A stretch of DNA of 64,000 nucleotides from an archaeon (GCA_024274875.1 JAJSAH010000017.1:34897-98896), one strand, 5' to 3'; shown: positions 12,948 to 39,671, counted from the stretch's first letter. Numbers and translations are program-made. The notes: a model not told the origin generated them from the sequence alone.

Positions 12948-13643
12948 CTACTCTGCAACCTTGCTCTCCCTAAGAAAGCGTATTATCTTGCCGTCATCAG
13001 CAGCAGATGTTGGGAGAGACACCTCAGTCATAAGCGCGAAATTCTTTACAAGAGAACATGAGGGGCCTTCAGGAGTCTCAGCAATGCATACCTTTCCCCA
13101 CTGAGTTCCATGGAGATCGCGCGCCTTGAAATGCGGGTGAGACCTGCTCAAAGGAGAGATTAACCTGCGCATGTGCGAGTTTGTGGAGAAGAAATTCGTG
13201 CGGTCCAACATTTGAGATACACCTGTCTGCCCTGCAATCCAGTTGCCCGTCGCAAGCGCATACCTAATCCTATCAGTGAACGCATCTGGCCGAATCGCTG
13301 TATGCGCAGAAATGCGCCTGCCCCTAGCAACACTGCGCTCCAATTGATATGTTACATCTTTAATCAAGAAATGGAATGCATACCTAAACAGCTCCTGCAT
13401 CAATTCCCCAGCAAGTTTTATACGTTTGTTCATATAATGATCCCTATCGTCCTCAACAATCTTTTTGTTCGCAACATAGATTGTTCGCTCAATCATGCCT
13501 GCTAAGTAATACGCCTTAGCTATGCGGGACTCAGGATCAGTGCCTAGGTGAGGAAGCAAGTATGTGTCCACAAGTATTTCAGCGCGCTTAAGCCTAAATT
13601 CTTTCGCTTGGCCAGGAGCTGCTTTTCTACCCACATAATCCAA
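12948..13643 (-). CDS. rpoB2: RNA polymerase subunit B'' (Rpo2N), C-terminal part, downstream of an in-frame TAA
   Basis: 231 aa with LLPHLG, ATGNW, RTNF..., HGTQWGKVC..ETPEG. It lies in the same frame as 13650..14414. The only nearby in-frame start is TTG 13643-13641, and no SD precedes it. Confidence 0.9.
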   Translation of the reverse strand: MDYVGRKAAPGQAKEFRLKRAEILVDTYLLPHLGTDPESRIAKAYYLAGMIERTIYVANKKIVEDDRDHYMNKRIKLAGELMQELFRYAFHFLIKDVTYQLERSVARGRRISAHTAIRPDAFTDRIRYALATGNWIAGQTGVSQMLDRTNFFSTNSHMRRLISPLSRSHPHFKARDLHGTQWGKVCIAETPEGPSCSLVKNFALMTEVSLPTSAADDGKIIRFLRESKVAE

Positions 13644-13649
13644 TGCATC

Positions 13650-14414
13650 TTAATAGGTTTTGCTCGCATCTATCTCCAAATTGTACAAAATTTCAGACCT
13701 TATGGCAACATCATCTGAAAACGCATTCAAAATCTCTTTGTCAGTCTTCAATCCAAGTATGCGCAAAAAGGGTATGACTGATACTGATGGGGGCGCAGCA
13801 GGAAATGACAGCTGAAGCTTGCCATCCTTTGTCCTATCTATGCTGCACCTTGCCCTAAACCCAAACCTTGTTGAAAACACTTTTGCATTCACAACGCCTT
13901 TCACTTTATCCATGCTGACTATCTTGCGGTTTGGAACCAAATCTTCTAAACTGACAAAAATCTTCTCAGTGCCATTCACAATGAAATACCCGCCCGGATC
14001 CAAGGGATCCTCGCCTAAGTCAAGCAGCTCATTCTTGCCCAAACCATTAAGATGGCAGGGTTTGGATTTAACCATTATGGGCAACTGCCCTATAAAAACT
14101 TCTTCCATATCCCTCTCTATGCCATTAATGGTTGGAAAAATTTCAAGGAAGATGGGAGATGAGTAGGTTAAGTTCCTCATCCTCGCTTCCATAGGAGTGA
14201 TGGATCTTCTTGAGCCATCTGCCTCCTGAACTGTTGGCGGTTCAATGCGCACATTCCCAAGCTTGAACGAATAACCCTCTATGCCTGGTTCGATCACATC
14301 TATGGAACGAACAACCTCACGCATGCCATGCTCGACAAAGCGGTTGAATGAATCAATGTGCTGCTTCGCAGGAGGATTTGACTTAAGATATATAGACATA
14401 AGCTCTTTCTTCAT
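13650..14414 (-). CDS. rpoB2: RNA polymerase subunit B'' (Rpo2N), N-terminal part, ending at an in-frame TAA (13652-13650)
   Basis: 254 aa with QHIDSFN, RNLTYS, GQLPIMVKS and DPGGYFIVNGTEK. Together with the downstream part it totals 486 codons, the normal B'' length. Confidence 0.9.
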   Translation of the reverse strand: MKKELMSIYLKSNPPAKQHIDSFNRFVEHGMREVVRSIDVIEPGIEGYSFKLGNVRIEPPTVQEADGSRRSITPMEARMRNLTYSSPIFLEIFPTINGIERDMEEVFIGQLPIMVKSKPCHLNGLGKNELLDLGEDPLDPGGYFIVNGTEKIFVSLEDLVPNRKIVSMDKVKGVVNAKVFSTRFGFRARCSIDRTKDGKLQLSFPAAPPSVSVIPFLRILGLKTDKEILNAFSDDVAIRSEILYNLEIDASKTY

Positions 14415-14438
14415 GTAATCACCAACAACATCTCAGGG

Positions 14439-14681
14439 TTAAACAACCAAACGGTAGTATATAACTTTACCTGTGGGCTCTTCTCTGTAAATCCTTATCA
14501 CATCGCCTTCCTTAGCACGAATGGCTTTTATCGCAGGATCTGTGCTCAATATCTTCGGAAGATGCTTCTTGGAATCAATTTTAAACTGCTTCAAAACGGA
14601 GTCAACCTCAGAATCAGGCACTATTTCGTGCTTAGGAACCAAAACATGATCTAACACATTAAATTTTCTTCGCTTGCTCAA
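14439..14681 (-). CDS. rpoH: RNA polymerase subunit H (Rpo5)
   Basis: 80 aa with HVLVPKHEIV...LPKI...DP. It is the first gene of the rpo operon. Confidence 0.9.
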   Translation of the reverse strand: MSKRRKFNVLDHVLVPKHEIVPDSEVDSVLKQFKIDSKKHLPKILSTDPAIKAIRAKEGDVIRIYREEPTGKVIYYRLVV

Positions 14682-14764
14682 GCTATACCACCAGAGAGTA
14701 ATATGTTTAATTCAGTTAAAATTAAAATAGTTATGGTGCTTACTGCAAAAACAGGCATAAGCTT

Positions 14765-17149
14765 TTATAACCAATCACCCAAACCCTTCTGCCTCTTCCC
14801 TGTTCTAAGCAGATCCTTCTTATAGCCCAGCTCTCCAAGAATCTTTTCCACAGCAGGAATCACCTGATGATTTATATAGTAATCCGCATCATAATCACCT
14901 TCGCTAACATACTCTGCAAGATCAGCCTTATCTGAAATTGATTTGCCTTCCTTAGTAATGACATAGCTAATCATATACCCTTCTTTTATAGGCACGCCGC
15001 GCTTAATGCCTTTTATAGCAGCAGCAACTTCAGGGCCTTTGGATTTGTATTCGCTTGGGTTCCTGCGCAGGATTGTCCGCATTATTAAATCTTCCTTATT
15101 AACTCTGCCGTGCTTTAACTCTTCAATAACATCGCGCACAATCGAAACTGCCTTATTTATATCGCCTTCCCTAAGTATGGTTTCAAGAACTTTCTTCTGC
15201 GTCTCTTTTGCTATGTTGGACCAATCTCTCCTTACAAGCTCAAACCCTCTTATCTTTATCCTGCCATCCCTGCTCAACAACGCATATTTTTTCTTTGCGC
15301 CAGCTTTGCCTGATTTTTTAGCAACGAACACGCCGCGCGTGTAAACATCTTCAAGCTCCAACTCCATGCCTTTGGGAAGCGAACGGTTAACCTTATTCAT
15401 GAAATGCATCGCTTCATCCTCTGATTTGCCATCAAGAAGAATGAATATTGAATCTGTATCACTGTATAAAACATTAAACCCTTCCTTCTCGGCTTTTGCT
15501 ATCACATCTTTTATATAATACCTCTCCCATGCAGTTGTCGCAGATGCGCATTCCCTGCAATACCATCTTGCGCGGCCATACCGCAACATGCCATAAAAAG
15601 AGTTGGCTATAATCTTGAACGCATACTGCCGCGCATACGCATACCTGTACTCCTCGCTATCCTTATCAAGCGATTTCAACAACTTCTTCAGCGAATACCT
15701 GTGCTTAAGCAATGAAGAAAGCACATCAGAAATAAGGCCTTTCTTTTTTGCGCAAAATCTATGTCCATCAGGGGATATGTGCGCTTCATTATCAGAACAG
15801 CAGGCACAATTCAAGGTTTCAGGAGAAATATTGTGCGAAACAATTATGCTGGGATACAAACTCCTGAAATCAAACACAACTATATTATTGTATATGCCTG
15901 GGGAAGGCATCTTTACATAAGCCCCTTCAATTGATTCAGAAAAGCGCGATGCAACCAAAGTTTCCTTAGGTTTGTTTGGAGCGACAATTCCTTTATCATG
16001 CGAAGATTTGAGCAAAACTGCCTCAACCAACTGCCCTGTAGTGGAGGAGACCGAATCTTCTAAGCGCATATGAGCTATCCGAGAGATCTCAACGAATATT
16101 GGAAGAAGGCGCTCGCCAAGCTCATAAGTGCTCTGCGCATCCGAAAGCGCATACCTGAACAGCAAATCCCTTTCTGAATCGCTCTCCCACATCTTCCAAA
16201 TATCAAGCTTCTGCACAGATATTTTATCAGAACCAAACATTTCTTTGTAAACTTCGCTTAGAGTATATACATTCGTTCTCAAAGCGCCGATCATTGCAAG
16301 AAACCTGGACATGTGGTACACATCTAAATGAAGCCTTCCTGAAATGCTTGCGGTTGAATACATGCCACTCTTTCGCAATCTAAGCGCAGTATTATCTCTG
16401 CCTAAAACAAAATCAGTGCGTAAGCGCTTGGCGCGAGAACGCAAGTACGGAAAATCAAACTCAGATCCATTATATGTATATATTATGTCAGTATTGTTAT
16501 CCCTAATAAGTTTGCAAAACCTGCTTAGGAGACGCCTCTCATCATCAACTACCACTGCATGCCGATTATCAGTTTTCTTATAAGTAATAAATCCCTTCGC
16601 GTTATGAGTTGCATAAGAGAGTATGATAATTGGATCCTTATCAGGTCTTGGAACTCCATAAGGATTGTATGTTTCAATATCAAAAGCAAGCCTGTTAAGC
16701 TTGAAATCGCTTGAAGAACAACTGGAGATTTTCACATAATCTTTATTCTCATTTGTGTAATTAATAACGCTGAAAACTGAAACGCCACTGTCGATCATAA
16801 ACCGCTTAACAAAAGGTATGTCAGCTTCATAGCATCTCCCAAACTTATCAAAGATGCTTCTCAATTTAGGAACATCTGTGGGGTTATAACAAACTACTTT
16901 AATAATGCGTTTTTTCACATTGCCTAATATGCGCGCTACTTTGCGTATTGATTTAATTTGAGGCACATCCTCCAATTCCTTAGGGAAAACGCCATCGTAA
17001 TAAAAATACGGATCAAATTCAACATACCTGAACAAAACCTTGCCATTTGACCTCAAAACAAGCCGAATAACACCTTGTTCTAGTTCATTATCGCCTGATA
17101 TAACTGGACGTTTCACATAGTCAACATCAAGCAAGAAGGCCTTTGGCAT
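14765..17149 (-). CDS. polB: Family B DNA polymerase
   Basis: 794 aa. Exonuclease motif FDIETY; polymerase motifs SLYPSII, KIIANSFYG and YSDTDS. Confidence 0.95.
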   Translation of the reverse strand: MPKAFLLDVDYVKRPVISGDNELEQGVIRLVLRSNGKVLFRYVEFDPYFYYDGVFPKELEDVPQIKSIRKVARILGNVKKRIIKVVCYNPTDVPKLRSIFDKFGRCYEADIPFVKRFMIDSGVSVFSVINYTNENKDYVKISSCSSSDFKLNRLAFDIETYNPYGVPRPDKDPIIILSYATHNAKGFITYKKTDNRHAVVVDDERRLLSRFCKLIRDNNTDIIYTYNGSEFDFPYLRSRAKRLRTDFVLGRDNTALRLRKSGMYSTASISGRLHLDVYHMSRFLAMIGALRTNVYTLSEVYKEMFGSDKISVQKLDIWKMWESDSERDLLFRYALSDAQSTYELGERLLPIFVEISRIAHMRLEDSVSSTTGQLVEAVLLKSSHDKGIVAPNKPKETLVASRFSESIEGAYVKMPSPGIYNNIVVFDFRSLYPSIIVSHNISPETLNCACCSDNEAHISPDGHRFCAKKKGLISDVLSSLLKHRYSLKKLLKSLDKDSEEYRYAYARQYAFKIIANSFYGMLRYGRARWYCRECASATTAWERYYIKDVIAKAEKEGFNVLYSDTDSIFILLDGKSEDEAMHFMNKVNRSLPKGMELELEDVYTRGVFVAKKSGKAGAKKKYALLSRDGRIKIRGFELVRRDWSNIAKETQKKVLETILREGDINKAVSIVRDVIEELKHGRVNKEDLIMRTILRRNPSEYKSKGPEVAAAIKGIKRGVPIKEGYMISYVITKEGKSISDKADLAEYVSEGDYDADYYINHQVIPAVEKILGELGYKKDLLRTGKRQKGLGDWL

Positions 17150-17173
17150 GCATAAAGTTAGGCAGAAAAATAA

Positions 17174-17770
17174 TTATTCTTTCTTGACTATCGCAATATC
17201 CTCTAAGTTCACAACCAACTCCTCGCTCTTAACCTGATGGCGCTTCTCCCTCCTTTCCTTCATCTCTTTCCGTTTGCGGACCTCTGCGCGCTTCTTCTTG
17301 CGCTCTGCACGCAGTTTAATCAGGTTAAGCTTCATTTCATCAAGCTCATTCTTAAGCTGTTCAATCTCAGCATCCAGAGATTTAATTTGCTTAAACAACT
17401 CTGCGCGTTCGCCCTCCCTCTCCTGAGCGCGTTTAATCTCATTATCAAGCTCTTTAATATGTTTCATCAAAGCGCGCTCCTTATCCAACGTTATGGCCTC
17501 TGTGGACACTTTAAACTCAAGGCGCTTCCTTTTGTTCGTTAGTGCGCGAACACTTATGCGGTTCAAATTGCTCAACCGGTCTCTTAATCGTTTAATCTCT
17601 TCAATCTTCTCAAGCAGAAGTTTGCGCTTCTCTCTTATGGAAGAAGTTAGTTCATTAAACACATTCTTCTTCTCAGCGCCAGCATCGTTCTTAACAGGCT
17701 TCTCCTCACCACCAGAAGAGACCTTTGCATTCTTTTCCTCAACGCTCAGTTCTGCCAAGAAATCCACCAT
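17174..17770 (-). CDS. Coiled-coil protein, K/E/R-rich, function unknown
   Basis: 198 aa with heptad-like charged repeats throughout. It is possibly COG1340-like, but that is unverified. Confidence 0.45.
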   Translation of the reverse strand: MVDFLAELSVEEKNAKVSSGGEEKPVKNDAGAEKKNVFNELTSSIREKRKLLLEKIEEIKRLRDRLSNLNRISVRALTNKRKRLEFKVSTEAITLDKERALMKHIKELDNEIKRAQEREGERAELFKQIKSLDAEIEQLKNELDEMKLNLIKLRAERKKKRAEVRKRKEMKERREKRHQVKSEELVVNLEDIAIVKKE

Positions 17771-17804
17771 AGAATTAATTGTGCTAACTTTTTAGAAGAT
17801 AAGC

Positions 17805-17812
17805 TTTTTATA
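17805..17812 (+). promoter_or_regulatory. TATA-like box (tttttata) about 25 nt upstream of the 5S rRNA
   Basis: Called from the spacing to the predicted 5S 5' end at about 17833. Confidence 0.4.
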
Positions 17813-17832
17813 GATTACTTCGTTTAAAACTA

Positions 17833-17949
17833 TGCCAACGGCCATAGGGAAGGGGAAACGCCTGTTCCCATTCCGAACACAGAAGCTAAGCCCTTCCACG
17901 GTGTTGCTGGTACTGCCCTTCGGGCGGGAAGGCGCACTGCTGTTGGCAC
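17833..17949 (+). rRNA. rrf: 5S ribosomal RNA, not linked to 16S/23S within this window
   Basis: Contains GCCAACGGCCATAGGG...CCCATTCCGAACACAGAAGCTAAGCCC...GTTGGCA. The terminal helix closes as GCCAAC/GTTGGC. Confidence 0.9.
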
Positions 17950-17968
17950 TTAAAAAGTGATGCTGGTT

Positions 17969-19075
17969 TTATTGATTGCGCGCATGAACATGCTGCATAA
18001 GCGGTTTATAAAAGGAGAGTATGTTGTCGGAAATACCTAATAATTGCTTAAATTGCCTATTGTAGATGCAATTATGCATCAGAAGGAGATCTGATTGAAC
18101 CTCAAATGCATACTCATCCTTCGTCCTAATGAGTTGATCTGCAAAATAGAACGGCTTATTTACTTGCATGTATTGAACAACAGCATTAAGATTTTGAAGC
18201 ACTTCTGCTCTGCGCGATTCAACAGCATTCTTGTATGTATTCCTAAGCAGATTGACAATGTATCTCTTATTTTTCCTTCGTTTGATCTTCCTGCCTAAAC
18301 TGCATAATTCTGCCAAAAAACGCGAATCATTATCTGAATACATGCGAACCAGTTTCTTTATGCCCATTATATCCGAGCAATCCGCTAAGTATGCATTTAA
18401 AACGGCATATCTGCTCCTCGATTCGAATGCGCGATAAAGTCGAACAATAGAAAGGTAAATATATTCGTCCCTTAAATATCGCGCATGCATCTCCCTCTCC
18501 AAAGCATACCTTATCTTGCCAGAGAACATCTCTTGCCGAGCAGTGAATCTCCTAATTGATGCTAAAACAATTGATATAGCTGGGTTTAGTTTTGAATAAT
18601 AGTCAAACTTTGATGCAGAAGACTTTGCTTTTTCAAGTTTTGAGATGGCATGCAACAATTTCTCATGAGCGATAATTTTGTGCAAAGTTGCTGCATTAGA
18701 TACAGAATCAGCAACGCCCCTTATAATAATAAGCGCTTCGCGGATATCATTTTGCTGCATTAAATCTGCGGCACGCTGCAAATCACGAATGCACTTCAAT
18801 AAGAGAAGATTGTCATCCTCCAAACTTTTGCGCATGTGCTTAAACATGCGAACAGACTTAAACACATCTATATCGAGGGTAATCTTTTTTTGTGGGGGTT
18901 GCCTGCCGTTCAAATAATACCTATTAAGAGTAGATAGGTCCATCCTTTTGAGCATCTTAGCTGATTCGCGCTTCAACCCTACTCTTAAAAAACCCCGCCT
19001 CCTTGCCGGCCGAATCTTAAGATCACGCTGTCTGTTGCGCATAATCAATGCGCCATATTCACTTACCAAAAACAT
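17969..19075 (-). CDS. Hypothetical protein (all-alpha, basic)
   Basis: 368-aa ORF. No motif recognised. Confidence 0.45.
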   Translation of the reverse strand: MFLVSEYGALIMRNRQRDLKIRPARRRGFLRVGLKRESAKMLKRMDLSTLNRYYLNGRQPPQKKITLDIDVFKSVRMFKHMRKSLEDDNLLLLKCIRDLQRAADLMQQNDIREALIIIRGVADSVSNAATLHKIIAHEKLLHAISKLEKAKSSASKFDYYSKLNPAISIVLASIRRFTARQEMFSGKIRYALEREMHARYLRDEYIYLSIVRLYRAFESRSRYAVLNAYLADCSDIMGIKKLVRMYSDNDSRFLAELCSLGRKIKRRKNKRYIVNLLRNTYKNAVESRRAEVLQNLNAVVQYMQVNKPFYFADQLIRTKDEYAFEVQSDLLLMHNCIYNRQFKQLLGISDNILSFYKPLMQHVHARNQ

Positions 19076-19097
19076 GTGAATTATTCAAGAGAGATGG

Positions 19098-19167
19098 TTA
19101 ATAAAATTTTCTGTGCATTACGCTGCTTAATGCATTCCTCTCTTTCTCATGACCTTCCTCAGCTGGA
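19098..19167 (-). pseudogene. Orphan 3'-terminal fragment of a nitroreductase gene, displaced by the AbiE insertion
   Basis: The minus strand reads PAEEGHEKERNALSSVMHRKFY*. The C-terminus of the intact gene at 20586.. reads PAEEGHEKNRMSLNQVLHNEEF*. Confidence 0.65.
19144..19167. repeat. Direct repeat, left copy: ttctcatgaccttcctcagctgga
   Basis: Exact 24/24 match to 20632-20655. Confidence 0.9.
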
Positions 19168-19240
19168 CGTTAAACATAAAACATAATTATTTAAATATTG
19201 TCACCATATTTTAACATATTTGTTAAAAAATAGTGATGTT

Positions 19241-19813
19241 ATGAGATTGGTTGATATGTTTAACAGAATCAAATCATCAGGAAAGTTGGTTTATGGAATA
19301 AATGAACTGAGCAATCTCCTAGGCATCAGAAAAAATGTGCTAAGCATATATGTGAACAGAATGTGCAAACAAGGGCTTGCAAACAGAATCGGTAGGAAAA
19401 TTGTGTTCACGGACAATGATTTTGTAATCGCTTCACAACTCATAGAGCCATCTTATATATCAATTCACAGCGCCTTATACTTGCACAAAGTAATACAACA
19501 AATACCGCAAAAAATCGAATCTGTCAATCCTGCAAACACCTTCAAAATAGATGGATATATATACTATAAAATCAATCCAAAACTATTCTTTGGATATGAA
19601 AAAAAGAGGTTTGCTGAAAGTTATGTGTTTTTGGCAACTCCCGAGAAAGCGGTTTTGGACGGAATTTATCTCTCAAAGATACCTCTAAACATATTGCCGG
19701 AAATAATTGAATACTTAGACAAAAGAGTTCTAAAAAAAACTGCTGAACGGATGAAAAAAACCTCTGTTAGAGGCACAAAAAAAACTTATAAAATCATAGA
19801 GAAGTGGTTATGA
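19241..19813 (+). CDS. abiEi: AbiEi-like antitoxin / transcriptional regulator (type IV TA)
   Basis: About 190 aa, sitting immediately upstream of and overlapping an AbiEii-family gene. The N-terminal region looks like a winged helix. The ORF track starts at TTG 19220. Confidence 0.65.
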   Translation: MRLVDMFNRIKSSGKLVYGINELSNLLGIRKNVLSIYVNRMCKQGLANRIGRKIVFTDNDFVIASQLIEPSYISIHSALYLHKVIQQIPQKIESVNPANTFKIDGYIYYKINPKLFFGYEKKRFAESYVFLATPEKAVLDGIYLSKIPLNILPEIIEYLDKRVLKKTAERMKKTSVRGTKKTYKIIEKWL

Positions 19814-20568
19814 TGCTAACGCGTGATGAACTAATAAGCATTGCAAAACAGTTCGGCAACAAACCATGGCAACAGGAAAAACATTATGTGCAGAGCGCTG
19901 TAATTTACTCCATTGCAGACCTCCCTTTAGTTTTCAAAGGGGGCACATATCTTTGGTTCTTCCATGGACTGCCAAGGTTCTCAGAAGATTTGGATTTTAC
20001 TTCTACCGGTAAGATCTCACTGAAGACCATCGCTGAAAAAGTTAGAAGAGGATTGGGCATGTTCGGAATGCATTCAGAAATCAGTCAATCAAAAACAAAA
20101 GAGAAAAAAAATTCAATGATATTGAGAATCGATGCAAAAGGGCCATTATACGCTAATCATTTATCAAAAACATTCGTCTACATAGAAATTAGCAGAAGAG
20201 AAAAATTGCTGCTCAAACCGATAAATCTGATTCTGAGAATGGATTATTACATGATTCCGCAGAAAGCTGTGTTGGGCATGAACTTATCTGAAGTTGCCGC
20301 AGAGAAAGTCAGAGCAATTTTAACAAGAGATAAGGCAAGAGATGTCTATGACCTGCATTTTCTGGTTAAATATAAGGGCATTAAGTTTGATCCAGACCTT
20401 GTTAATGCAAAACTCTCATATTACGGGTTAAAATATGATAAGAAAAAGTTCATATCTAAATTGAATAAGATTGAAGAATATTATGCTGATGAATTGTCAG
20501 TGCTAACAAACAATCCCATCCCTGATTTCAGCAAGGTAAAGGGTTTGCTGGCTGAATGGGTTGGTTAA
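19810..20568 (+). CDS. abiEii: Nucleotidyltransferase AbiEii/AbiGii-family toxin (DUF1814)
   Basis: Contains EKHYVQ...LVFKGGTYL...RFSEDLDFT, characteristic of AbiEii. The ATGA overlaps the abiEi stop. Confidence 0.82.
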   Translation: MMLTRDELISIAKQFGNKPWQQEKHYVQSAVIYSIADLPLVFKGGTYLWFFHGLPRFSEDLDFTSTGKISLKTIAEKVRRGLGMFGMHSEISQSKTKEKKNSMILRIDAKGPLYANHLSKTFVYIEISRREKLLLKPINLILRMDYYMIPQKAVLGMNLSEVAAEKVRAILTRDKARDVYDLHFLVKYKGIKFDPDLVNAKLSYYGLKYDKKKFISKLNKIEEYYADELSVLTNNPIPDFSKVKGLLAEWVG

Positions 20569-20585
20569 GCGATGCATACAAATAA

Positions 20586-21365
20586 TCAAAACTCTTCATT
20601 ATGCAAAACTTGATTTAAACTCATCCTATTCTTCTCATGACCTTCCTCAGCTGGATACCCTAACGGAAGAACTGCAACTGGCTCGACATAATCCGGCAAT
20701 TTCAGGATTTCTTTAAGCGCGCCGTTATTGAAAGCGCCCACCCAAACGCTTCCTAAACCCCTATCAGCAGCAGCTAACTGAATGTATGCAGAAACTATGC
20801 ATGCATCTGCAACTGCATAGAATTCCTCGCCTCTTTTACCATATTTTGAACCACTCTTCTTTCTGTTAGCGCATACAACAATAACAATTGGAGCTTCCAT
20901 AATAAAATCTTGTTCAAAACATGCGCTTGCAATCTTTTTCTTCCTTTCCGCATTCTTTACCAAAATAAATTCCCATGCCTGCAAATTGCCTGCGCTGGGC
21001 GCTAATATCGAAGTTGAAAGAATATCATTGATAACAGCATCAGAAACATCATCTGGTTTATACGCCCTTATGCTTCTCCTTTTCAGCGCAAGGTCTTTGA
21101 ATGCGCTCTTAAGTGCAATTATTTGATAGCCATATTTATCAACATCATCTTTGGGCCAAAAAGCAATATCCTTGGTCTTTGCCACATAAGTTATTTCTTT
21201 CTCAATAACTCTTCCTGTATATTTCTTTGTTTCAGGATCCCATTCGCGCAAAATTAAAACATCTACTGGCTTGCATTCAAAATCTGCTAACCTAATCTCA
21301 AATGTCTTATCTCCAGAAACAACCTTATCAAAATATTTTGGCCAGATCTTTTTTTCGATTTTCAT
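20586..21365 (-). CDS. Fusion protein: N-terminal DUF3850/ASCH-like domain plus C-terminal nitroreductase domain
   Basis: The N-terminus KIWPKYFDKVVSGDKTFEIRLADF...LREWD...YTGR follows the DUF3850 pattern. The C-terminus RRSIRAY...APSAGNLQAW.F follows the nitroreductase pattern. Confidence 0.78.
   Translation of the reverse strand: MKIEKKIWPKYFDKVVSGDKTFEIRLADFECKPVDVLILREWDPETKKYTGRVIEKEITYVAKTKDIAFWPKDDVDKYGYQIIALKSAFKDLALKRRSIRAYKPDDVSDAVINDILSTSILAPSAGNLQAWEFILVKNAERKKKIASACFEQDFIMEAPIVIVVCANRKKSGSKYGKRGEEFYAVADACIVSAYIQLAAADRGLGSVWVGAFNNGALKEILKLPDYVEPVAVLPLGYPAEEGHEKNRMSLNQVLHNEEF
20632..20655. repeat. Direct repeat, right copy: ttctcatgaccttcctcagctgga
   Basis: Exact match to 19144-19167. 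It lies inside the 3' end of the nitroreductase CDS. Confidence 0.9.
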
Positions 21366-21396
21366 AATTTATATTTATGCGCGATCTTATAAAAAT

Positions 21397-22356
21397 ATGG
21401 AATTGAGAAATAAAACAACTGTTGCAATAAAACCAAAACCTCCTTACAATTTCGATGCTAACTTTCATAAGCCGTCGCATTTCCCGTCATCAGATAACTG
21501 CTGGGAAAAAGGAAAATACTGGATAACTATGGTTTGGAAAGGCAGAGTGTTAGGGTTGAAGTTTGAAAATATGGGGACAATAGGAAAACCTGAAATTAGA
21601 GCAAGCATATACTCAAAGAAAAAATTATCAAAAAAATTTGTTGATGAATTGGTTGAAGAAATTAGGTGGAGGTTTAATTTTGATTCAGATATTTCTGGGT
21701 TTCATAAAAAGTTCGGGAAGAGTGGGCTCTTGGGAAAATTTATAAGAAAATGGAAAGGCATGAAGCCAGTGGCAGCCAATTCTCTGTATGAAACATTAGT
21801 GATATACATAGTTCTTCAAAACGCAACCGTTAGAAGATCAGTGCAAATGCTTGAAAACTTGTTTAAACGGTTCGGAAAGAAAGTAAAATTTGACCGGAAA
21901 ATTATGTCTGCATTCTGGGAGCCGGAAGAGATTGCAAAAGCTGATGAGCAGGAGTTAAGGGATTTGAAGGTTGGGTACAGGGCTAAATTTCTTAAAAGGA
22001 TCTCTGAGCAGTTGGCAAATAATGAAATAGATGAGTTTGCGCTTAGGAAAATGGCAAAGGAAGATGTTAAAAAAGAGATGTTAAAATTATATGGGATTGG
22101 GCCTGCATCAATTGAATACCTGCTTTTTGAGGATTTTTATTTTTATGATGCGCTGGAAACAATACCGCCCTGGGAACAGAAAATATTGTCAAGGTTGATA
22201 TTCAATAGGAAAACAGTTCCTGCTGAAAAAATACTGAAATTTTTTATGAAATTTAAACCATACCAAAAATTAGCATTCCATTATGTTTGGGAAGATTTGT
22301 TCTGGAGAAGGAAGCATCAGCATATTGAATGGCTGGAAAAGGAGATAAGGTTATGA
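21397..22356 (+). CDS. HhH-GPD superfamily DNA glycosylase (AlkA-like)
   Basis: Contains PPYNFDANF at the N-terminus and the helix-hairpin-helix LKLYGIGPASIEYLL. ATG 21397 is preferred over the longer track ORF, which overlaps the divergent gene. Confidence 0.72.
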   Translation: MELRNKTTVAIKPKPPYNFDANFHKPSHFPSSDNCWEKGKYWITMVWKGRVLGLKFENMGTIGKPEIRASIYSKKKLSKKFVDELVEEIRWRFNFDSDISGFHKKFGKSGLLGKFIRKWKGMKPVAANSLYETLVIYIVLQNATVRRSVQMLENLFKRFGKKVKFDRKIMSAFWEPEEIAKADEQELRDLKVGYRAKFLKRISEQLANNEIDEFALRKMAKEDVKKEMLKLYGIGPASIEYLLFEDFYFYDALETIPPWEQKILSRLIFNRKTVPAEKILKFFMKFKPYQKLAFHYVWEDLFWRRKHQHIEWLEKEIRL

Positions 22357-23142
22357 TTCTTCATGATATGCGCATAAAACAATATCCGCGCTTCCATTTG
22401 AAACCTTTATGCCCCTAAAATACTTGCAAACAGAAACATTCTTTACGGCGCATTTGTGCTCATTAGATTTTTCAGCTATATTCCAAGGGCACCTGTCCTG
22501 CTTCCAGCTTATTTTGTTTTCAGATGTTGTTAAATCTATATCCATGTTCGCCCCTTTCAATTCTATTATTTTTTCGTTTTTCTCACCAAGCAAAGACCTA
22601 ACTTTTTTAAGGATTAAATCAAATCTGCAATATCCTGCTTTCTCATTAAAATGGCCTGCATTCTTAACAAGAATTAAATCAACCCCTAAATTATTTGCAA
22701 GATGTTATGCTTTCTCTAAAGGAACATAGGGATCATTATCGGAGTGATACACATAAAATTTCTTACAATTTTGTCTTATCTTAGACCAATCAAAGTTCGG
22801 TTTAATGAAAGATTTATTGATGTTATCAAAATCAGGATTTTCCAGCAGGTCTATAAATCCTGAAACAAAGAAAGCTGCCTTGATTGGTTTGTTCTGCATT
22901 TCAAGAATGTTTAGCAAAAATGCAACTCCTAAACTATGACCAATAATAATAGAATTTTCGTTCAGATATTGTTCATAACCCTTAAAAATTTTGAGCCAAT
23001 TTTGAAGTGATTGATTTGCAGGAGTTGGAAATTTTGGAACAAAAACTCTGCAACCCAATCTTTCAAGCTCGCATTTGAGCCAGGGAAACCAATTTTCACC
23101 AGGATTTCCATACGCACCATGAATAATGAAAATGTTGGGCAT
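22351..23142 (-). pseudogene. RBBP9/YdeN-type serine hydrolase interrupted by an in-frame TAA (22707-22705). The frame stays open into a C-terminal Cys-rich extension.
   Basis: The catalytic Ser (GHSLG) and Asp (SDNDPYVP) come before the stop. The catalytic His (NAGHFN) comes after it, in the same frame (own translation of 22594-22704). There is no in-frame ATG, GTG or TTG before the His. Confidence 0.7.
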
Positions 23143-23192
23143 GGCAGAATATTGCTTGGCAAAATATTTAAGCATAATAGAGAAACAAAATC

Positions 23193-23397
23193 ATGCAACC
23201 AAAAACCATCAAGTTGAATAGAAAATATATCAAACAAATTGCCAAAGTTGATTCAATAAGGATTTGGAAAGATTTGTTTATACACAAACAAAAGAAATAA
23301 GAAAGCGAAATTCTATGAAAAACTTGGATACAAATTAATCAATGAATTCCCTAATTATTATAGTTATGATAAAGAGTGCAGGACAGTTGTTTTATAG
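23193..23397 (+). pseudogene. GNAT acetyltransferase relic, with an internal deletion and a frameshift
   Basis: Frame 0 reads MQPKTIKLNRKYIKQIAKVDSIRIWKDLFIHKQKK*. Frame +1 reads ...KKAKFYEKLGYKLINEFPNYYSYDKECRTVVL*, a typical GNAT C-terminus. The acetyl-CoA-binding core is missing. Confidence 0.55.
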
Positions 23398-29351: not shown

Positions 29352-29353
29352 GA

Positions 29354-30779: not shown

Positions 30780-30809
30780 ACAAAACAGTATCTCAAAAAT
30801 GTTTTTTAA

Positions 30810-31928: not shown

Positions 31929-31932
31929 GAAT

Positions 31933-33564: not shown

Positions 33565-33613
33565 ATATATTTCCTCCAATATGTTATGTGTATAATCAAT
33601 ATGTGGTGATGGT

Positions 33614-33874
33614 ATGCCTAAGTATGTAATTGCAAAGCAGCTTGCGGGGAAGAAGATCATAACCAGTGATGGTGAAGATGTTGGAAGGCTTGTGGATATA
33701 AAGATTGCTGAGACGGGGGGAAGGTTGCAGACGCTGGTTCTTGAGCCTAATTATGACAGCCCTATCGCATCTAAGTTGGAGAAGGATGAGCAGGGCCATT
33801 CATTGCTGCCTTACGATGCAGTCATGGCGGTATCTGATTTTATTATTGTCGATAAGAAAACCCTCTCAGTTTGA
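33614..33874 (+). CDS. PRC-barrel domain protein
   Basis: 86 aa containing GKKIITSDGEDVGRLVDIKIAETGG.L..LVLEP. Confidence 0.6.
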   Translation: MPKYVIAKQLAGKKIITSDGEDVGRLVDIKIAETGGRLQTLVLEPNYDSPIASKLEKDEQGHSLLPYDAVMAVSDFIIVDKKTLSV

Positions 33875-33879
33875 TTTTT

Positions 33880-34518
33880 ATGATTGCAGGCATCGATGAA
33901 GCTGGCAGGGGGGCGGTTCTCGGTCCCCTATGCATAGCATTGGTTTGCGGGGAAGAGGAGGATTTTAAATCGCTCGAGCTTGCGGATTCAAAGTTGCTCA
34001 CTAGGAGTGAGAGGGAGGAGCTGTATCCTGAAATACGAAAAAAATTCTATGCTGCGCACGTGCTCATACATGCACCAGAGTTGAATGAATTAATGAAAAG
34101 GTTCTCGCTCAATGAGATCGAAGCGATGAAAGCCGCATATTTAGTTAATGAAATGCCATCCGCCCCAGAACTAATCTATGTTGACTCGCCTGATCCGCAT
34201 GCGGACAGTTTTAGGTTGCGGATGCTTAGGCATATGTCAAGAGATATGAATATCTGCGCAGAGCATAAAGCAGATTTCAACTACCCAGTTGTAAGCGCGG
34301 CATCAATCGTAGCAAAAGTTTTGAGAGACTGGGAGATAGATAAAATACGTGATGAGATTGGTGTTGATTTTTCATCAGGTTATCCGTCGGATAATAGCAC
34401 AATCGCTGCTGTGAAGCACATGCTGAAAACTGAAGATGGAAAAAAGTATGTTCGCATGAGATGGAGCACGGTTGAAAGGATAATGGCAAACCAAAAGAAA
34501 TTGCAGGATTATTTTTGA
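33880..34518 (+). CDS. rnhB: Ribonuclease HII
   Basis: Contains GIDEAGRGAVLGPL and DSKLL. The track ORF begins at TTG 33871, which overlaps the upstream stop. Confidence 0.9.
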   Translation: MIAGIDEAGRGAVLGPLCIALVCGEEEDFKSLELADSKLLTRSEREELYPEIRKKFYAAHVLIHAPELNELMKRFSLNEIEAMKAAYLVNEMPSAPELIYVDSPDPHADSFRLRMLRHMSRDMNICAEHKADFNYPVVSAASIVAKVLRDWEIDKIRDEIGVDFSSGYPSDNSTIAAVKHMLKTEDGKKYVRMRWSTVERIMANQKKLQDYF

Positions 34519-35846
34519 ACTTGGTTGCGCACGGCCTCTCCAAAAACGCGCAAAAATTGATTGAGTTTATCTGGCTCAATCGTTGCGCCGGCTGCAATGT
34601 CATGCCCCCCACCTACGCCTATCCCTGCGCTGCACGATTCAGACAACGCTTTTCCTAAATCAAGCCCGTTGTCTATTAGGGATTTTGTGCCTCGCGCGCT
34701 CACTTTTATCATGCCTTCCTTATCTAACGCAATCGCGAGTATGGGTTTGGTTCGGTCAACACTTGAGTACAACATGCCTGCCACAACGCCTATTACTCCA
34801 TCATCAATCACGCCGCGCGCATCAAGAAAATAAAATATGCCAAAATCAGCAACCTTATTCAGCGCATACTCAATCCCTTCCCTAAGCACTTTCCTATGGT
34901 ATTCCAGCATTGATTTTGCACGTTCATATGCGCCCTGCCGCATTAATAGAGTGTTAACCCCAACATCAGGTTTGTCATGCCTGCCGCACGCGTTCAGAAG
35001 CGTTGAAAATTCGCTTGCATCCCTTAACTCTGTGCGTTCGGGAAAATTCAACAATTCATACACTTCAGATATTATGTGCTCTGCATCATATCTCCTTCCT
35101 CTATTGTATAGATATGCTACAAGAGCGCTCCTCAAGGTCCTCTTTTCATATTCAGAAAGATCGCTGTATGCTCTCCATTCATCTCCATTCTTTAATTCTA
35201 TACCTATCTCGTTGTAGAATGCGATCACATTCTGCTCATTGTTTGTGAGTCCAGGGAAGTATGGATCAACAGAATACGTAAGAAAAGGCACCAAAGTCCT
35301 GCTTACGCGCCCAAATATGTTCAAATCATTGTATGCTCTAAGAACACCTGCCTCTTCGCCATCTTTAAGCATGCGCCTATTCCATCCTATCAACGGAAAC
35401 TGCATATCGCCAACTGAACCAACTACTCCGTAAGGCGCGAACTCCTTCACATTAAAAACAAAATATGCAGCCGATGCGCTGCACATCTCATGCGAGCCAT
35501 CTATGCCATGCATGCGCGGGTTTACTTCAAGAATGGATGACTGCTCTCCCTGATGATGATCTATTATTACAAATGTTTTATCCATTCTTTCAAGCGATTC
35601 CGTTTGAGCTGAACCCAAATCCACAAGTATAACATTCTTTTCCTTCCTGCCTGCAATCAATTCCAGTTCTTTATCCGCAAGCTTGCGAACGCAAATCCTG
35701 CTATAACTTTTGCCCATTCTTTCGAGCGCAGCCGCAGTCAGCGCGCCGCTGCTCAACCCATCCGCGTCATAATGATGCACCAAAAGATAATTATCGCGCG
35801 AGCTTATATGCTCCCTTGCCTCTTTGCACGCGTCAAGAAATGACAT
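34509..35846 (-). CDS. DHH/DHHA1 phosphoesterase, archaeal RecJ/GAN-like
   Basis: Contains HHYDADGLSS, DLG, IIDHH and GGGHDIAAG. Confidence 0.8.
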   Translation of the reverse strand: MSFLDACKEAREHISSRDNYLLVHHYDADGLSSGALTAAALERMGKSYSRICVRKLADKELELIAGRKEKNVILVDLGSAQTESLERMDKTFVIIDHHQGEQSSILEVNPRMHGIDGSHEMCSASAAYFVFNVKEFAPYGVVGSVGDMQFPLIGWNRRMLKDGEEAGVLRAYNDLNIFGRVSRTLVPFLTYSVDPYFPGLTNNEQNVIAFYNEIGIELKNGDEWRAYSDLSEYEKRTLRSALVAYLYNRGRRYDAEHIISEVYELLNFPERTELRDASEFSTLLNACGRHDKPDVGVNTLLMRQGAYERAKSMLEYHRKVLREGIEYALNKVADFGIFYFLDARGVIDDGVIGVVAGMLYSSVDRTKPILAIALDKEGMIKVSARGTKSLIDNGLDLGKALSESCSAGIGVGGGHDIAAGATIEPDKLNQFLRVFGEAVRNQVQK

Positions 35847-35899
35847 AAATATGAATATGTTGATTTAATTAATAATTGTTTTTGCAGAAATGCTCCTGT

Positions 35900-36535
35900 A
35901 TGAGGATTGACTGGAAAGCCGCATACCTGCTGTATCTGTTGTTTGCTGGTTCGCTGCTTGCGCCTGCTATATTGGCTCCCGTGTTTGCAACTGCTGGAGT
36001 CGATTATTTTGCAGCAGTTATATATAACTTCACAAAACCTTTATGCCACCAATACATATACAGATCCTATTGCATTTTCAACAGCAACGGAACGCTGAGC
36101 GTGGAAGAATGCATCCCGAAAAGCGAAGAGAATGCAAGCTTTGTGCAGACAAAATTTTCCGGAAGGGTTTCCAACCTAAGCAAGTTTGTGTACAGGAGAG
36201 AAGATGTTGGAGTGAATAGAAGCGAGTATGTGGAAAGATACGGCAAGCGAGGATATAAGTTCGCAGTTTGCGCAAGAGACCTTTTTCAGTATGCAGGTTT
36301 GTTGGTCGCTGCAATTGCATACATTCCATTAAGGAAACATGTTAAGTCGCTTCCATCAACGCTGTACATCGTGATTGCAGTTATTCCGCTTGCGATCGAT
36401 GGAACAGGGCAGATGATTGGGTTATGGGAAAGTTTGAATGTTATGAGAGCGATAACTGGGTTCATCGCAGGAACAGTGCTGGGATATTACATACTGTTCC
36501 TTCTTGCAGACATATTCGAAAACCTAAAATTCTAG
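35900..36535 (+). CDS. DUF2085-like integral membrane protein
   Basis: Contains the CHQ..YRS motif (KPLCHQYIYRSY) and several TM segments. Confidence 0.6.
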   Translation: MRIDWKAAYLLYLLFAGSLLAPAILAPVFATAGVDYFAAVIYNFTKPLCHQYIYRSYCIFNSNGTLSVEECIPKSEENASFVQTKFSGRVSNLSKFVYRREDVGVNRSEYVERYGKRGYKFAVCARDLFQYAGLLVAAIAYIPLRKHVKSLPSTLYIVIAVIPLAIDGTGQMIGLWESLNVMRAITGFIAGTVLGYYILFLLADIFENLKF

Positions 36536-36570
36536 AATCATTTTTAAATATTAATGGTTCTAATCCACTT

Positions 36571-37989
36571 ATGGATTATTTGAGTTTCGGCACTACCGCC
36601 GAAATAAAAGTTCCTAAGAATCCATTAGAGCAAGTTATAGGGCAGGAGCATGTGCTTGAGATTGCTCACATAGTTGCGAGGCAGAAGCGCCATCTGTTGT
36701 TGGTTGGGCCTCCAGGAACTGGGAAAAGTTTTATTGCGGGCGCGATTGCATCGCTCATCCCGCCGCCTACTCAGCAGATTGCAGTGGTCAGCAATGAAGA
36801 CAACCCCGACAGGCCGATTTTGGAGATTAAAACACGGGAACTGATTGAGAAAGAAAAGCGCGAGATGAGGCGCGCTAAATTGGTTGACCCGCGTGATGTT
36901 CCGTATTATGTTTCAGAAAGGTTGGGGTTCAGATGCAGGAAATGCGGGACAATCAGTGATCCTGAATCAAACATATGTTTATATTGCGGTGCTGAAAAAT
37001 ACCGAAAAACCAAGAATATTGAGGATATGTTCTCTGATATGCCGCGCATAACCCGCGATGATAAAGTGTTCATGAAGCGCAGAAATGGAAAAAGTGGTGA
37101 AGAGGAATATATATATGAGCGCAGGGGAAACAAGGTTAAGGTATACAAAAGCAAGCTCATGGATATTTATGAACAGCAAAGAAAGGTTATAGTGCCTATA
37201 GATAGGAAAACATTCGTGCAAGCGACTGGTGCAAGCGAAGCTGAATTGCTTGGTGATGTGAGGCATGATCCGTATGGAGGGCATCCTGAGATAGGGATAC
37301 CGCCTCATGAGCGCGTAATTCCCGGCGCAATACACGAAGCGCATGAAGGCGTGCTTTTTATAGATGAGTTGTCAACGCTCGGCGAACTGCAAAGATATCT
37401 TCTAACAGCTATGCAAGAAAAGAAATTTCCCATACTCGGCAGGAACACGACAAGCACAGGAGCAGTTGTTAGAGTGGATAATGTGCCATGCGATTTTGTG
37501 CTCGTTGGCGCAATAAACATAAATGATGTAGGTTCAATACTTCCGCCGCTTAGATCGCGAATTATCGGTTCGGGTTATGAGGTATTGCTGAACACTGTTA
37601 TGGAGGACTGCGATGAAAACCGTATGAAACTCGTGCAGTTCACTGCACAAGAGATAAGCAAAGATAAGAGGATACCTCACGCAACTGCTGATGCATGCGA
37701 ACAAATAATAAGGGAGGCGCAGTTAAGGGCAAGGCAGATTGATGGGAAGGATGGCCTGACCTTGCGATTGAGAGATTTAAGCGGAATTATTAAGATGGCA
37801 GGCGATATAGCAATTGTAGAGAGCTCAGAAACAATAGATAAAAATCATGTGCGCAAAGCAATACAAAGGGCAAGGTCTATTGAAGAACAGCTTTTGGATA
37901 GTTATGGAAGCGCATGGAAAGCAGGAATGAGCGATTATGCTACGCTCAGAAGGAAAAAGAGAGATGGATTCACAAGCGAGATTATATAA
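36571..37989 (+). CDS. LonB-like AAA+ ATPase without a protease domain. A Zn-ribbon insert sits where LonB has its TM hairpin.
   Basis: Contains VIGQEHV...LLLVGPPGTGKSF (Walker A), VLFIDEL (Walker B) and the CRKCG...CLYCG insert. The protein ends about 25 aa after the AAA+ lid, and I could find no Ser-Lys protease region. Confidence 0.72.
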   Translation: MDYLSFGTTAEIKVPKNPLEQVIGQEHVLEIAHIVARQKRHLLLVGPPGTGKSFIAGAIASLIPPPTQQIAVVSNEDNPDRPILEIKTRELIEKEKREMRRAKLVDPRDVPYYVSERLGFRCRKCGTISDPESNICLYCGAEKYRKTKNIEDMFSDMPRITRDDKVFMKRRNGKSGEEEYIYERRGNKVKVYKSKLMDIYEQQRKVIVPIDRKTFVQATGASEAELLGDVRHDPYGGHPEIGIPPHERVIPGAIHEAHEGVLFIDELSTLGELQRYLLTAMQEKKFPILGRNTTSTGAVVRVDNVPCDFVLVGAININDVGSILPPLRSRIIGSGYEVLLNTVMEDCDENRMKLVQFTAQEISKDKRIPHATADACEQIIREAQLRARQIDGKDGLTLRLRDLSGIIKMAGDIAIVESSETIDKNHVRKAIQRARSIEEQLLDSYGSAWKAGMSDYATLRRKKRDGFTSEII

Positions 37990-39171
37990 TTAAGAAAACA
38001 TTTTTTCGATTATTTCCTTAATTTTGCGCGCATCGTATGTTAGCTTAATGAATCTTGTCTGGCCTCGCGTGCCTTTGCCCGATGATGAGAGCGTAATCAA
38101 GCCAAGCATGTCTAAATCGTGCAAATATTCCGAAAACCATCTTGCGCTCCGCGGAGAAACATTGAGCGATTTGCACGCGTTTGAATAACTCTCATAAACT
38201 TCACCAGACATGAATACATCTTTCCCGTCATCGCCAAGGCGCTTGTATGAACTGCCTTTCAGTTGCAGCAAGGATATGCCATACAGCGCAATTTGCTCAT
38301 GCTGCGGAAGCGTGGCGATTGCCTCCACAACCAAATCTTCATCAACACTGCGCCTAGCCTGCTCAACATGGCCTTCAGTAACCTTGGCATCGCAATTATC
38401 ATTCGCAAGCATACCTGCTTTATGGATCAGCTTTAAAGCGTATCTTGCATCGCCAGTCTCCCTTGCAGCAAGCGCGGCAGCCATGCGGAGCGCCGCCTGG
38501 TCGCAGGTTCCCTTCTTAAACGCGTTTTCAGCGCGCTGCTTTATGATTTCATACAATTGCGTAGCGTTGTACGGGCGGAACACAATCTCCTTCTCATATA
38601 GGGCGCTTTTGCTGCGCGGATCAAGCTTATCTTTAAAATGCAGCCTGTTAGATATGCCAATTATGGAAATGCTTCCCTGCTCAAGCTCATCATTAATGCG
38701 GGTTAAAGTGTAAACTAAATCATCAACATCCCTAACCATATCCACTTCATCGAGCACTACCACCAAATGCATGTTATTTTCTTCAACCCATTCCAACATC
38801 GATTCATACAACTTCGATAAGGGGTAGCCGATCTTTGCTTCATACCTGCATATCTCGCTCACAACTTTAAACACAATTTTATAGCGAGAATCATAAATCC
38901 TGCAGTTCATGTATTTCATCAAAGCATTCTTCTTCATCTGATTAAACTTATCCATAACGCTTTTTGAACAGCAGGTTTTCCCTGTGCCCGTTTTGCCGTA
39001 CAAAAACATGTTTTTTGGTTTGGTGTTCTTGAGCGCAGGCATAACCGTTTTCATTATAGATTCAATTTCTTTCTCTCTGTGAGGCAGCACCTCTGGAACA
39101 TAATGCGGCGATAGGACATTCATATCGTTGAAAATTCCACTCTGTTGCATGAGATCTTCAAACGTTAACAT
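37990..39171 (-). CDS. cdc6: Orc1/Cdc6 replication initiator
   Basis: Contains LYGKTGTGKT (Walker A), VVLDEVD (Walker B) and a C-terminal winged helix. ATG 39171 is preferred. Confidence 0.92.
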   Translation of the reverse strand: MLTFEDLMQQSGIFNDMNVLSPHYVPEVLPHREKEIESIMKTVMPALKNTKPKNMFLYGKTGTGKTCCSKSVMDKFNQMKKNALMKYMNCRIYDSRYKIVFKVVSEICRYEAKIGYPLSKLYESMLEWVEENNMHLVVVLDEVDMVRDVDDLVYTLTRINDELEQGSISIIGISNRLHFKDKLDPRSKSALYEKEIVFRPYNATQLYEIIKQRAENAFKKGTCDQAALRMAAALAARETGDARYALKLIHKAGMLANDNCDAKVTEGHVEQARRSVDEDLVVEAIATLPQHEQIALYGISLLQLKGSSYKRLGDDGKDVFMSGEVYESYSNACKSLNVSPRSARWFSEYLHDLDMLGLITLSSSGKGTRGQTRFIKLTYDARKIKEIIEKMFS

Positions 39172-39305
39172 GGATACCCTCCAAAAAGCCGTGAGTATTT
39201 TAGAGCAGTAAAACAATATATACTTAATTCGCCTTAGCGAAACGCTGCGCGAGAAGGCATTACATCTTTATATTCTTTATTGTTCCAATATAATACGGTG
39301 GTATC

Positions 39306-39671
39306 ATGGGAATGTTGCAAAAGTTTTCTGACGCTTTAGGGCTCGGCGGAAAAGAAATGAATGTGCAAGAATATCTTGATGGGGAGGATTTGGAGAACCT
39401 TGAGGATGAAGAGGAGGAAGCGCTTGCGTATGTGAAGCCTGTGGCGCTTGAAAGTCCTAATGTGATTCCTGAAATTAAGAATTAATTGCAGTCAGGCAAC
39501 CTGATTTTGTTGAACATCACACCTATGCTCAAAGATGAAAGAATGCTTTCAGATATCATCGATTCGCTGAAAACTTACATTAACTCAATAAAGGGAGATA
39601 TAGCAAGAATAGATAATGAGAAAATACTATTAACGCCTTCTAGAATGAAGATTGTTAAAAGAAGAAGATAA
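39306..39671 (+). CDS. sepF: Cell-division protein SepF homologue interrupted by an in-frame TAA at 39483-39485
   Basis: The sequence MGMLQKFSDALGLGG...AYVKPVALESPNVIPEIKN*LQSGNLILLNITPM...GDIARIDNEKILLTPSRMKI aligns across the stop to archaeal SepF (recalled Haloferax DVIAIKDAVYDGNLVIADIT...GDIV...ITP). It is 121 codons in total. Confidence 0.75.

Follow-up and report, generated by a model that had tools for sequence, protein, structure and literature searches.

In-frame TAA codons at glutamate-compatible positions in three conserved genes of a Micrarchaeote contig

Is a TAA codon that stands in the middle of a conserved gene an error, a lesion, or a codon that is read? This question is raised by a 64-kb stretch of archaeal DNA (64,000 nt; GCA_024274875.1, JAJSAH010000017.1:34897-98896), referred to as the window, with all positions counted from its first letter. 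It is dense, with about 69 genes and a G+C content of c. 41%, and was assigned to a Micrarchaeote, a tiny symbiotic archaeon (DPANN), the named RpoB'' homologues being labelled Micrarchaeota or Micrarchaeia. The genes for RNA polymerase subunit B'' (rpoB''), for a serine hydrolase, and for the cell-division protein SepF (sepF) are each interrupted here by an in-frame TAA. The pattern formed by these three stops is real and statistically unusual, and its origin was approached by comparing the window with homologues, with sister loci, and with a background of other DPANN sequences.

Three conserved genes interrupted by TAA

For comparison, 120 homologues of RpoB'', 56 of SepF, and 120 of the hydrolase were examined. 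The closest relative was found in Logan contigs of ERR14788039 and ERR14856888 only (L001, L169, and L170), and five sister loci (L002, L016, L081, L082, and L084) proved to be syntenic with the window over 2.5–17.8 kb and 30.8–45.8 kb. No DNA of the same species was detected in GTDB representative genomes or in JGI metagenomes, where the best RpoB'' identities were 80% and 62%, respectively.

The rpoB'' gene lies in its canonical operon position on the minus strand (12948-14414) and comprises 488 codons ending with TAG, with the in-frame TAA as codon 255 (13650-13652, minus strand). Translated with X at the stop, the protein aligned over its whole length with 120 intact homologues of 484–523 amino acids (aa), the best identities being 94%, 84%, and 80%, and the 94%-identical homologue (over 488 aa) was itself intact, carrying the domains PF04563, PF04561, and PF04565. 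Alignment to RpoB of Thermococcus kodakarensis (4qiw_B, residues 21–491) set the stop site opposite a Glu. Overall, the stop column contained E in 34 homologues, A in 31, D in 21, Q in 14, and K in 13, with D or E in the 13 closest ones and GAT as the codon in the 94%-identical relative L001. The break adjoins an indel-prone loop, inside the stretch to which the Rpb2 domain families match. Compared to the closest relative, synonymous and non-synonymous codon differences amounted to 121 and 20 upstream and to 118 and 9 downstream of the stop, and deviations of RpoB'' that looked private turned out to be common to relatives.

The second core gene, sepF (39306-39671, plus strand), has 121 codons and ends with TAA, and its in-frame TAA (39483-39485, plus strand) is codon 60, in the place of an invariant Glu inside the folded core. 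A match to PF04472 (E = 6.7e-12) covers residues 43–116 and spans the stop. All 56 homologues, identical by up to 85% and mostly 119–123 aa long (a few up to 153 aa), revealed Glu in this column, encoded by GAA in the closest relative (L087, 85% identical) and by GAG in three others, and Glu is likewise the residue aligned to the site in the SepF-like structures 3zig and 3zie. Synonymous and non-synonymous differences were 23 and 9 upstream versus 23 and 8 downstream of the stop, and the gene has cdc6 as its immediate neighbour, which holds for all sister loci too. At its 3' end, sepF is overlapped by 42 nt (39630-39671) by a convergent SpoU methyltransferase gene on the minus strand, where the sisters have a gap of 7–19 nt. 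The genes for the origin-associated proteins OapB and OapC (2170-2822, plus strand) share the window with the Orc1/Cdc6 gene (37990-39216, minus strand).

The hydrolase gene (PF06821, RBBP9/YdeN type; 22588-23175, minus strand) has no stop codon of its own, and translation probably begins at the second of its ATG codons (23142). Counted from the ATG at 23175, the in-frame TAA (22705-22707, minus strand) is codon 157, upstream of the catalytic His. A match to PF06821 (E = 3e-21) covers residues 16–190 across the stop, with the Ser, Asp, and His motifs preserved. The stop column contained E in 52 and K in 50 homologues, with GAA in the nearest one (L168). As had been observed previously, the hydrolase has no start before the catalytic His, with neither ATG nor GTG nor TTG between the TAA and this residue. 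Homologues have a length of 185 aa and end with ..LL; the frame in the window has no stop at this point and stays open for 78 more codons, so that in total it is open and coding for 117 codons past the TAA. The gene is an accessory one, its closest homologue being located in a non-syntenic context and those homologues that carry names belonging to several lineages of DPANN and Patescibacteria.

In frame with the hydrolase, and with no stop in between, follows a Cys-rich small-protein module of 80 codons (22351-22593, minus strand), whose TTG start (22593) is the penultimate Leu codon of the hydrolase. It displayed a coding score of 0.33, and zero stops occur in that frame only. Its family comprises 78 homologues, mostly 45–110 aa in length and stand-alone, with the motif GANMDIDL..CPWN..HKCA.K..S.C; the family is uncharacterised, with no Pfam match, and fusions of the module with GNAT or PhyH enzymes occur in some other organisms. 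The locus thus probably represents a hydrolase-module fusion interrupted by TAA; alternatively, the module may be expressed alone from the TTG at 22593. The notion that the hydrolase is a decayed pseudogene for want of its own stop is weakened, since the module behind it represents a genuine family of small proteins with fusions to other enzymes elsewhere.

For all three genes, translation bore out the coordinates and frames given in a preliminary description of this DNA, with one in-frame TAA in each, and its statement that homology continues past each TAA in the same frame was confirmed by Pfam domains and close homologues that align across all three stops. With E at the stop position, the full-length proteins read ...SKTY[E]DALDYVGR for RpoB'', ...EIKN[E]LQSGNLILLNITPMLK for SepF, and ...VPLEKA[E]HLANNLGVDLILVK for the hydrolase. 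The stop columns are all Glu-compatible, i.e., the in-frame stops, at three sites only, match one specific amino acid in homologues, as in dual-meaning codes of the Blastocrithidia/Condylostoma type, and the codons of the nearest relatives are GAA (SepF and hydrolase) and GAT (RpoB''). This placement is non-random, and it sharpens the earlier idea of readthrough to an ochre suppression that inserts Glu. None of the stops is common to relatives, as every one of the 120 RpoB'', 56 SepF, and 120 hydrolase homologues has a sense residue at the site, and no internal stops were found in the orthologous genes of the sister loci. The sense codons of the sister genomes (GAT for rpoB'', GAA for the hydrolase, and GAA or GAG for sepF) speak against a conserved recoding, which the preliminary description had itself allowed such codons to do.

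Normal termination at TAA and frequency of in-frame stops

A search for further lesions, using sister orthologues where available and Pfam or NCBIfam for most of the remaining genes, revealed no other internal stop and no apparent frameshift in the 69 genes, nor any in-frame TAG or TGA in the genes of the window. Affected are therefore 3 of 69 genes, 3 of 20,470 codons, and 3 of about 1,410 Glu positions. All pairs of same-frame ORFs with one stop between them were checked as candidates for further interrupted genes, and each resolved into two genes, an RNA gene, or non-coding DNA: 547-1365/310-546 is non-coding on that strand, the pairs 17174-17770/PolB and 42838-43515/43549-43962 are separate genes in sister genomes, 17792-17968 is 5S rRNA and not an open reading frame (ORF) of a split pair, the stop of 43997-44335 is a plain terminator, and the aminopeptidase at 62694-63950 runs off the end of the window.

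TAA is also the most frequent codon at gene ends, terminating 36 of the 69 genes (52%), followed by TGA (19) and TAG (14). The genes for EF-2, PolB, RpoH, MetRS, and pelota, previously cited as properly ended by TAA, are indeed so: the ends of EF-2, RpoH, and PolB coincide with those in sister loci, MetRS has the length of its counterpart in a sister (543 aa), and the family profile of pelota is matched over its full length. For DHH phosphoesterase, AAA ATPase, Cdc6, and SepF, TAA likewise stands at the C-terminal position of the sisters. At orthologous gene ends, TAA was counted in 14 of 31 cases in the window compared to 25 of 66 in the sisters and is thus not avoided. No enrichment of tandem stops was seen after TAA, the next in-frame stop being no nearer than after other stops. 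Given 36 genes terminated by TAA, conserved C-termini, and no avoidance, we agree with the preliminary description that this is not a simple codon reassignment; normal termination at TAA excludes it and also argues against efficient readthrough.

The surroundings of the three stops gave no hint of a cis-acting signal. The +4 bases are G, C, and T, RNA of 100 nt after each TAA folds no better than shuffled sequences (z = 0.85, -0.78, and 0.48), and regarding the +4 base and tandem stops the three sites did not differ significantly from genuine TAA terminators. Candidate codons for reinitiation are present at two of them, as noted before, namely a TTG two codons after the TAA of rpoB'' (13641-13643, minus strand) and one directly after the TAA of sepF (39486-39488, plus strand), neither preceded by a Shine-Dalgarno (SD) site. 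The absence of SD sites before the downstream halves had been reported correctly, whereas the accompanying claim that such sites are common in the window held only in part, with SD 5-mers at 13 of 69 genes (background 3%). As its only factors related to termination or rescue, the window encodes the ribosome recycling ATPase ABCE1 and pelota in divergently adjacent genes (54736-57562). No tRNA genes were found in the 64 kb using ARAGORN and Rfam, and aRF1 is absent from the window, pelota (TIGR00111) being its only protein with an eRF1 fold.

To put the number of stops into perspective, 164 other DPANN loci with 337,225 codons aligned to window proteins served as a background. They contained three confident in-frame stops, so that the rate in the window (3 of 20,470 codons) is 16-fold higher (Fisher p = 0.003). 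Two of the background stops are TAAs from a single locus, L069, on the complete chromosome of Woesearchaeota bin1342 (CP070803.1), in rpoB' (12744-12746) and rpoA' (15244-15246), where other loci have Y/F/I/H and Q/S/A/E/K, respectively; this 21-kb locus revealed no frameshifts and no in-frame TAG or TGA. The third is a TAG in rpoB' (L038:12943-12945) of a groundwater Woesearchaeota metagenome-assembled genome (MAG; JACQMU010000106.1), in a column with Leu in 70 of 74 loci. As a hint, the TAAs of L069 suggest that a leaky UAA could be wider in DPANN.

The type of change is unusual as well. Based on the codon usage of the window, a random nonsense change yields TAA with a probability of 0.40 and does so from GAA with 0.088, which rises to 0.27 if only G>T/C>A changes are considered; under the polarised substitution spectrum of the lineage itself, GAA>TAA accounts for 0.074. 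The chance of three stops sharing any single source codon is 0.005.

Explanations for the interrupted genes

The explanation that we put first, albeit tentatively, is a consensus error or very young dead alleles, which we consider slightly more likely than a suppression inserting Glu. The three TAAs are read as recent, lineage-specific point substitutions of GAA to TAA (G>T on the coding strand) at Glu codons, within genes that are otherwise intact and under purifying selection, in an organism with a standard code and TAA as its main terminator. The sites themselves would be without function, being either base errors in the single deposited consensus of a MAG or alleles that are very young and non-functional and by chance formed the majority in the sampled population. 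In our inference, these T bases reflect artefacts or dead alleles and are not part of decoded codons. In SepF and the hydrolase, each TAA is one G>T step away from the GAA of the nearest relative, and that of rpoB'' is one step away from a codon at which D and E are interchangeable (GAT in L001, E in others). Sporadic stops in RNA polymerase genes of other DPANN assemblies (L069 and L038), at positions other than Glu, also favor this explanation. Moreover, the downstream halves of rpoB'' and sepF are as constrained as the upstream halves according to their codon differences, and lineage-specific residue changes are not elevated downstream of the stops. Equal constraint on both sides implies that the changes are very recent or exist in silico only.

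Regarding the origin of the sequence, truncated forms of RpoB'' (254 aa) and of the hydrolase (156 aa, P0177) are both recorded in the NCBI-derived protein set, so the TAAs are present in the deposited assembly; unlike these two, which are annotated as fragments, SepF has no fragment on record. In a collection of 15 billion proteins, a single NCBI contig (118,373 bp) was the only source of the window proteins. Cluster look-ups found six of them, each on a single NCBI contig, and exact look-ups in the contig collection retrieved none of the four that were tried. Since the proteins trace to one NCBI contig only, the T is without support from an independent assembly.

Several results weigh against this explanation. 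Three GAA>TAA changes out of three have a chance of about 4e-4 under the spectrum of the lineage, or 1e-3 when Lys is allowed as the ancestral residue of the hydrolase, and reach only 0.02 even with every error being G>T/C>A; these figures are softened by the uncertain ancestral state of RpoB'' (D or E). If three stops in 64 kb arose by error, about 30–65 substitutions would be implied, yet no frameshifts or other stops were found in the 69 genes. Signs of the error-prone assembly that had been considered previously were not found among frameshifts, other stops, odd residues, or G>T changes, the last two tests having low power. In RpoA', RpoA'', RpoB', RpoB'', S7, S12, and RpoH, deviations at columns conserved to at least 95% numbered 16 in the window compared to 17 and 17 in two sister MAGs, and G>T/C>A changes made up 41 of 569 (7%) single-base changes specific to the window compared to 35 of 352 (10%) in a sister; as the error model predicts an excess of only about 1–5 events in either test, both leave room for error. 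Oxidative G>T artefacts of library preparation usually have a low allele fraction (PMC3616734) and should thus not reach the consensus at normal coverage. Real dead alleles should not be in the majority unless rescued, because two of the three genes are essential. Although it needs a process that produces substitutions only, the explanation by error or dead alleles is the most likely one, being simple and in line with both the non-conservation of the stops and TAA as the normal terminator.

Next in rank, possible but somewhat less likely, is a Micrarchaeote with a natural ochre suppressor inserting Glu. The TAAs would then be real and partly decoded, most simply by a variant of tRNA-Glu with the anticodon UUA and possibly helped by a weakened aRF1, so that full-length RpoB'', SepF, and hydrolase fusion are made and UAA acts as the main terminator and as an occasional Glu codon. 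With GAA>TAA changes tolerated, drift in a small symbiont population would let TAAs accumulate. Only such a suppression would keep all three proteins functional, and it alone accounts for the Glu pattern, the single type of stop, the intact constraint, and the essential genes. Three TAAs in Glu-compatible columns, including the invariant Glu of SepF, are unlikely under neutral or G>T-only nonsense input. Full purifying selection on the downstream halves, the lack of frameshifts and of in-frame TAG or TGA, a stop rate 16 times the DPANN background, and the 117 coding codons that follow the TAA of the hydrolase are all in favor of it. Against this stands the role of TAA at gene ends, which it fills in 52% of genes without being avoided compared to sisters and without a backup of tandem stops, so that efficient suppression would extend half of the proteome. 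In addition, just 3 of some 1,410 Glu positions are affected, and the stops are missing in the relative with a 94%-identical RpoB''. To our knowledge, archaea have no poly(A)-based cue of the kind thought to tell sense from stop in eukaryotic ambiguous codes, which also counts against a suppression. Our literature searches yielded no case of UAA decoded as an amino acid in a bacterium or archaeon and, for Micrarchaeota and DPANN, no account of recoded UAA or of stops in frame. A screen of 250,000 genomes listed only reassignments of the stop UGA, its authors stating that stops with a dual meaning are undetectable by it (PMC8629427).

We regard gene splitting with termination and reinitiation as quite unlikely. 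According to this idea, translation would restart at a nearby TTG and yield two polypeptides that assemble, which in the case of RNA polymerase would be a further split of an already split subunit. Archaeal rpoB is naturally divided into B' and B'', and split genes are contained in DPANN genomes. The TTG codons two codons behind the TAA of rpoB'' and directly behind that of sepF would suit a restart, as would the indel-prone loop beside the rpoB'' site. The hydrolase, however, could not be rescued in this way, having no start before its catalytic His, and SepF is cut at an invariant Glu inside its folded core rather than at a domain boundary, which is structurally implausible. No SD site precedes either TTG, the split is absent in all relatives with RpoB'' or SepF homologues, and neither the recency of the changes nor the restriction to Glu is accounted for.

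Similarly improbable in our estimation is a true loss of the genes as pseudogenes, in a genome that is decaying or complemented, the function being provided by paralogues, by other copies in a polyploid cell, or by a host. DPANN archaea are reduced episymbionts, and the accessory hydrolase, with its non-syntenic closest homologue and a frame that lacks its own stop, would fit this explanation. The decay that the preliminary description had considered is nevertheless unsupported by the window: no frameshifts or second lesions occur in the 69 genes, and constraint downstream of the stops is not relaxed. The catalytic motifs of the hydrolase are intact, rpoB'' and sepF keep the canonical operon position and the conserved synteny, respectively, and a majority would not be expected for nonsense alleles of two essential genes present in single copy.

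Rejected were a codon reassignment, with TAA not depleted as a terminator, 3 of 69 genes affected, and the trait not clade-wide, and a conserved programmed readthrough, with sense codons in relatives and no common context or structure at the sites.

Neighbouring features, known systems, and significance

Apart from the interrupted genes, the window harbors a stand-alone 5S rRNA gene (17834-17948, plus strand) between the upstream neighbour of PolB and an ORF of 368 aa, and an archaeal RNase P RNA (61865-62132, plus strand). Three ankyrin-repeat proteins of 154, 314, and 182 aa (48644-50082 and 62132-62680, minus strand) are possibly host-interaction factors. An AbiEii-type nucleotidyltransferase toxin (PF08843; 19804-20568, plus strand) is overlapped upstream by an ORF of 197 aa without a Pfam match (19220-19813) that probably encodes the antitoxin belonging to it; the sister loci have nothing corresponding to this stretch (19220-20568). 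Next to it, a protein of 259 aa (20586-21365, minus strand) combines DUF3850/ASCH and nitroreductase domains. In two assemblies of one sister species, L084 differs from L085 by an extra 75-aa RNase HII fragment (L084:4190-4417) after the full RNase HII gene; either the DNA was duplicated locally or the assemblies differ at this point.

Known systems resemble the three interrupted genes in different respects. Isolated internal stops of MAGs, such as those of L069 and L038, are consensus errors or real nonsense alleles, usually annotated as pseudogenes, and are the nearest counterpart of the explanation by error or dead alleles. They likewise interrupt genes whose remainder is conserved, and relatives do not have them; compared to these ordinary cases, the window stands out by a density about 16 times the average, by the lack of accompanying frameshifts, and by stops that are all of the GAA>TAA type. 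The natural division of rpoB into B'' and B' in many archaea and the split genes of Nanoarchaeum and other DPANN also present consecutive pieces on one strand, but these splits are conserved across lineages, lie at domain boundaries, and have proper starts, while the break in rpoB'' consists of one in-frame stop that no other genome has. Pyrrolysine at UAG and selenocysteine at UGA in archaea are examples of a stop codon with a second sense meaning, as in the suppression discussed above; the codons differ, however, the sites are conserved, and tRNAs and enzymes of their own or cis elements take part, nothing of which was seen here.

In bacteria, where both laboratory and natural cases exist, one anticodon change turns a tRNA into an ochre suppressor that reads UAA weakly and rescues nonsense alleles of essential genes, with normal termination largely kept. 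The classical suppressors of Escherichia coli insert Gln, Tyr, or Lys, not Glu, and we know of no ochre suppressor described in a wild archaeon; a suppressor gene as in bacteria was not seen in the window, where the 64 kb contain no tRNA gene. In the code of Blastocrithidia nonstop, UAA stands for both Glu and stop (PMC12153298). This code and the peritrich ciliate code with UAR as Glu share with the window in-frame UAA at positions where homologues have Glu and UAA as a real terminator (PMC12153298). Both codes are used in eukaryotic nuclei, where most genes carry stops in frame, tRNA-Glu genes cognate to these are present, and eRF1 is altered, whereas the window has three affected genes out of 69 and a trait that is not common to close relatives. 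By analogy, the Blastocrithidia code would be the nearest functional counterpart of a suppression in this archaeon, with the bacterial ochre suppressors also close.

If the three TAAs are artefacts or dead alleles, they illustrate that core genes in deposited genomes of DPANN can be hit by isolated nonsense codons, by which annotations are truncated. If they are decoded instead, an archaeon or bacterium would for the first time be seen to translate UAA into an amino acid, and a prokaryote to use UAA with a dual meaning. Such a case would offer a rare view of the early "ambiguous intermediate" postulated by theories on how the genetic code evolves, in a lineage whose populations are small and whose genomes are reduced.

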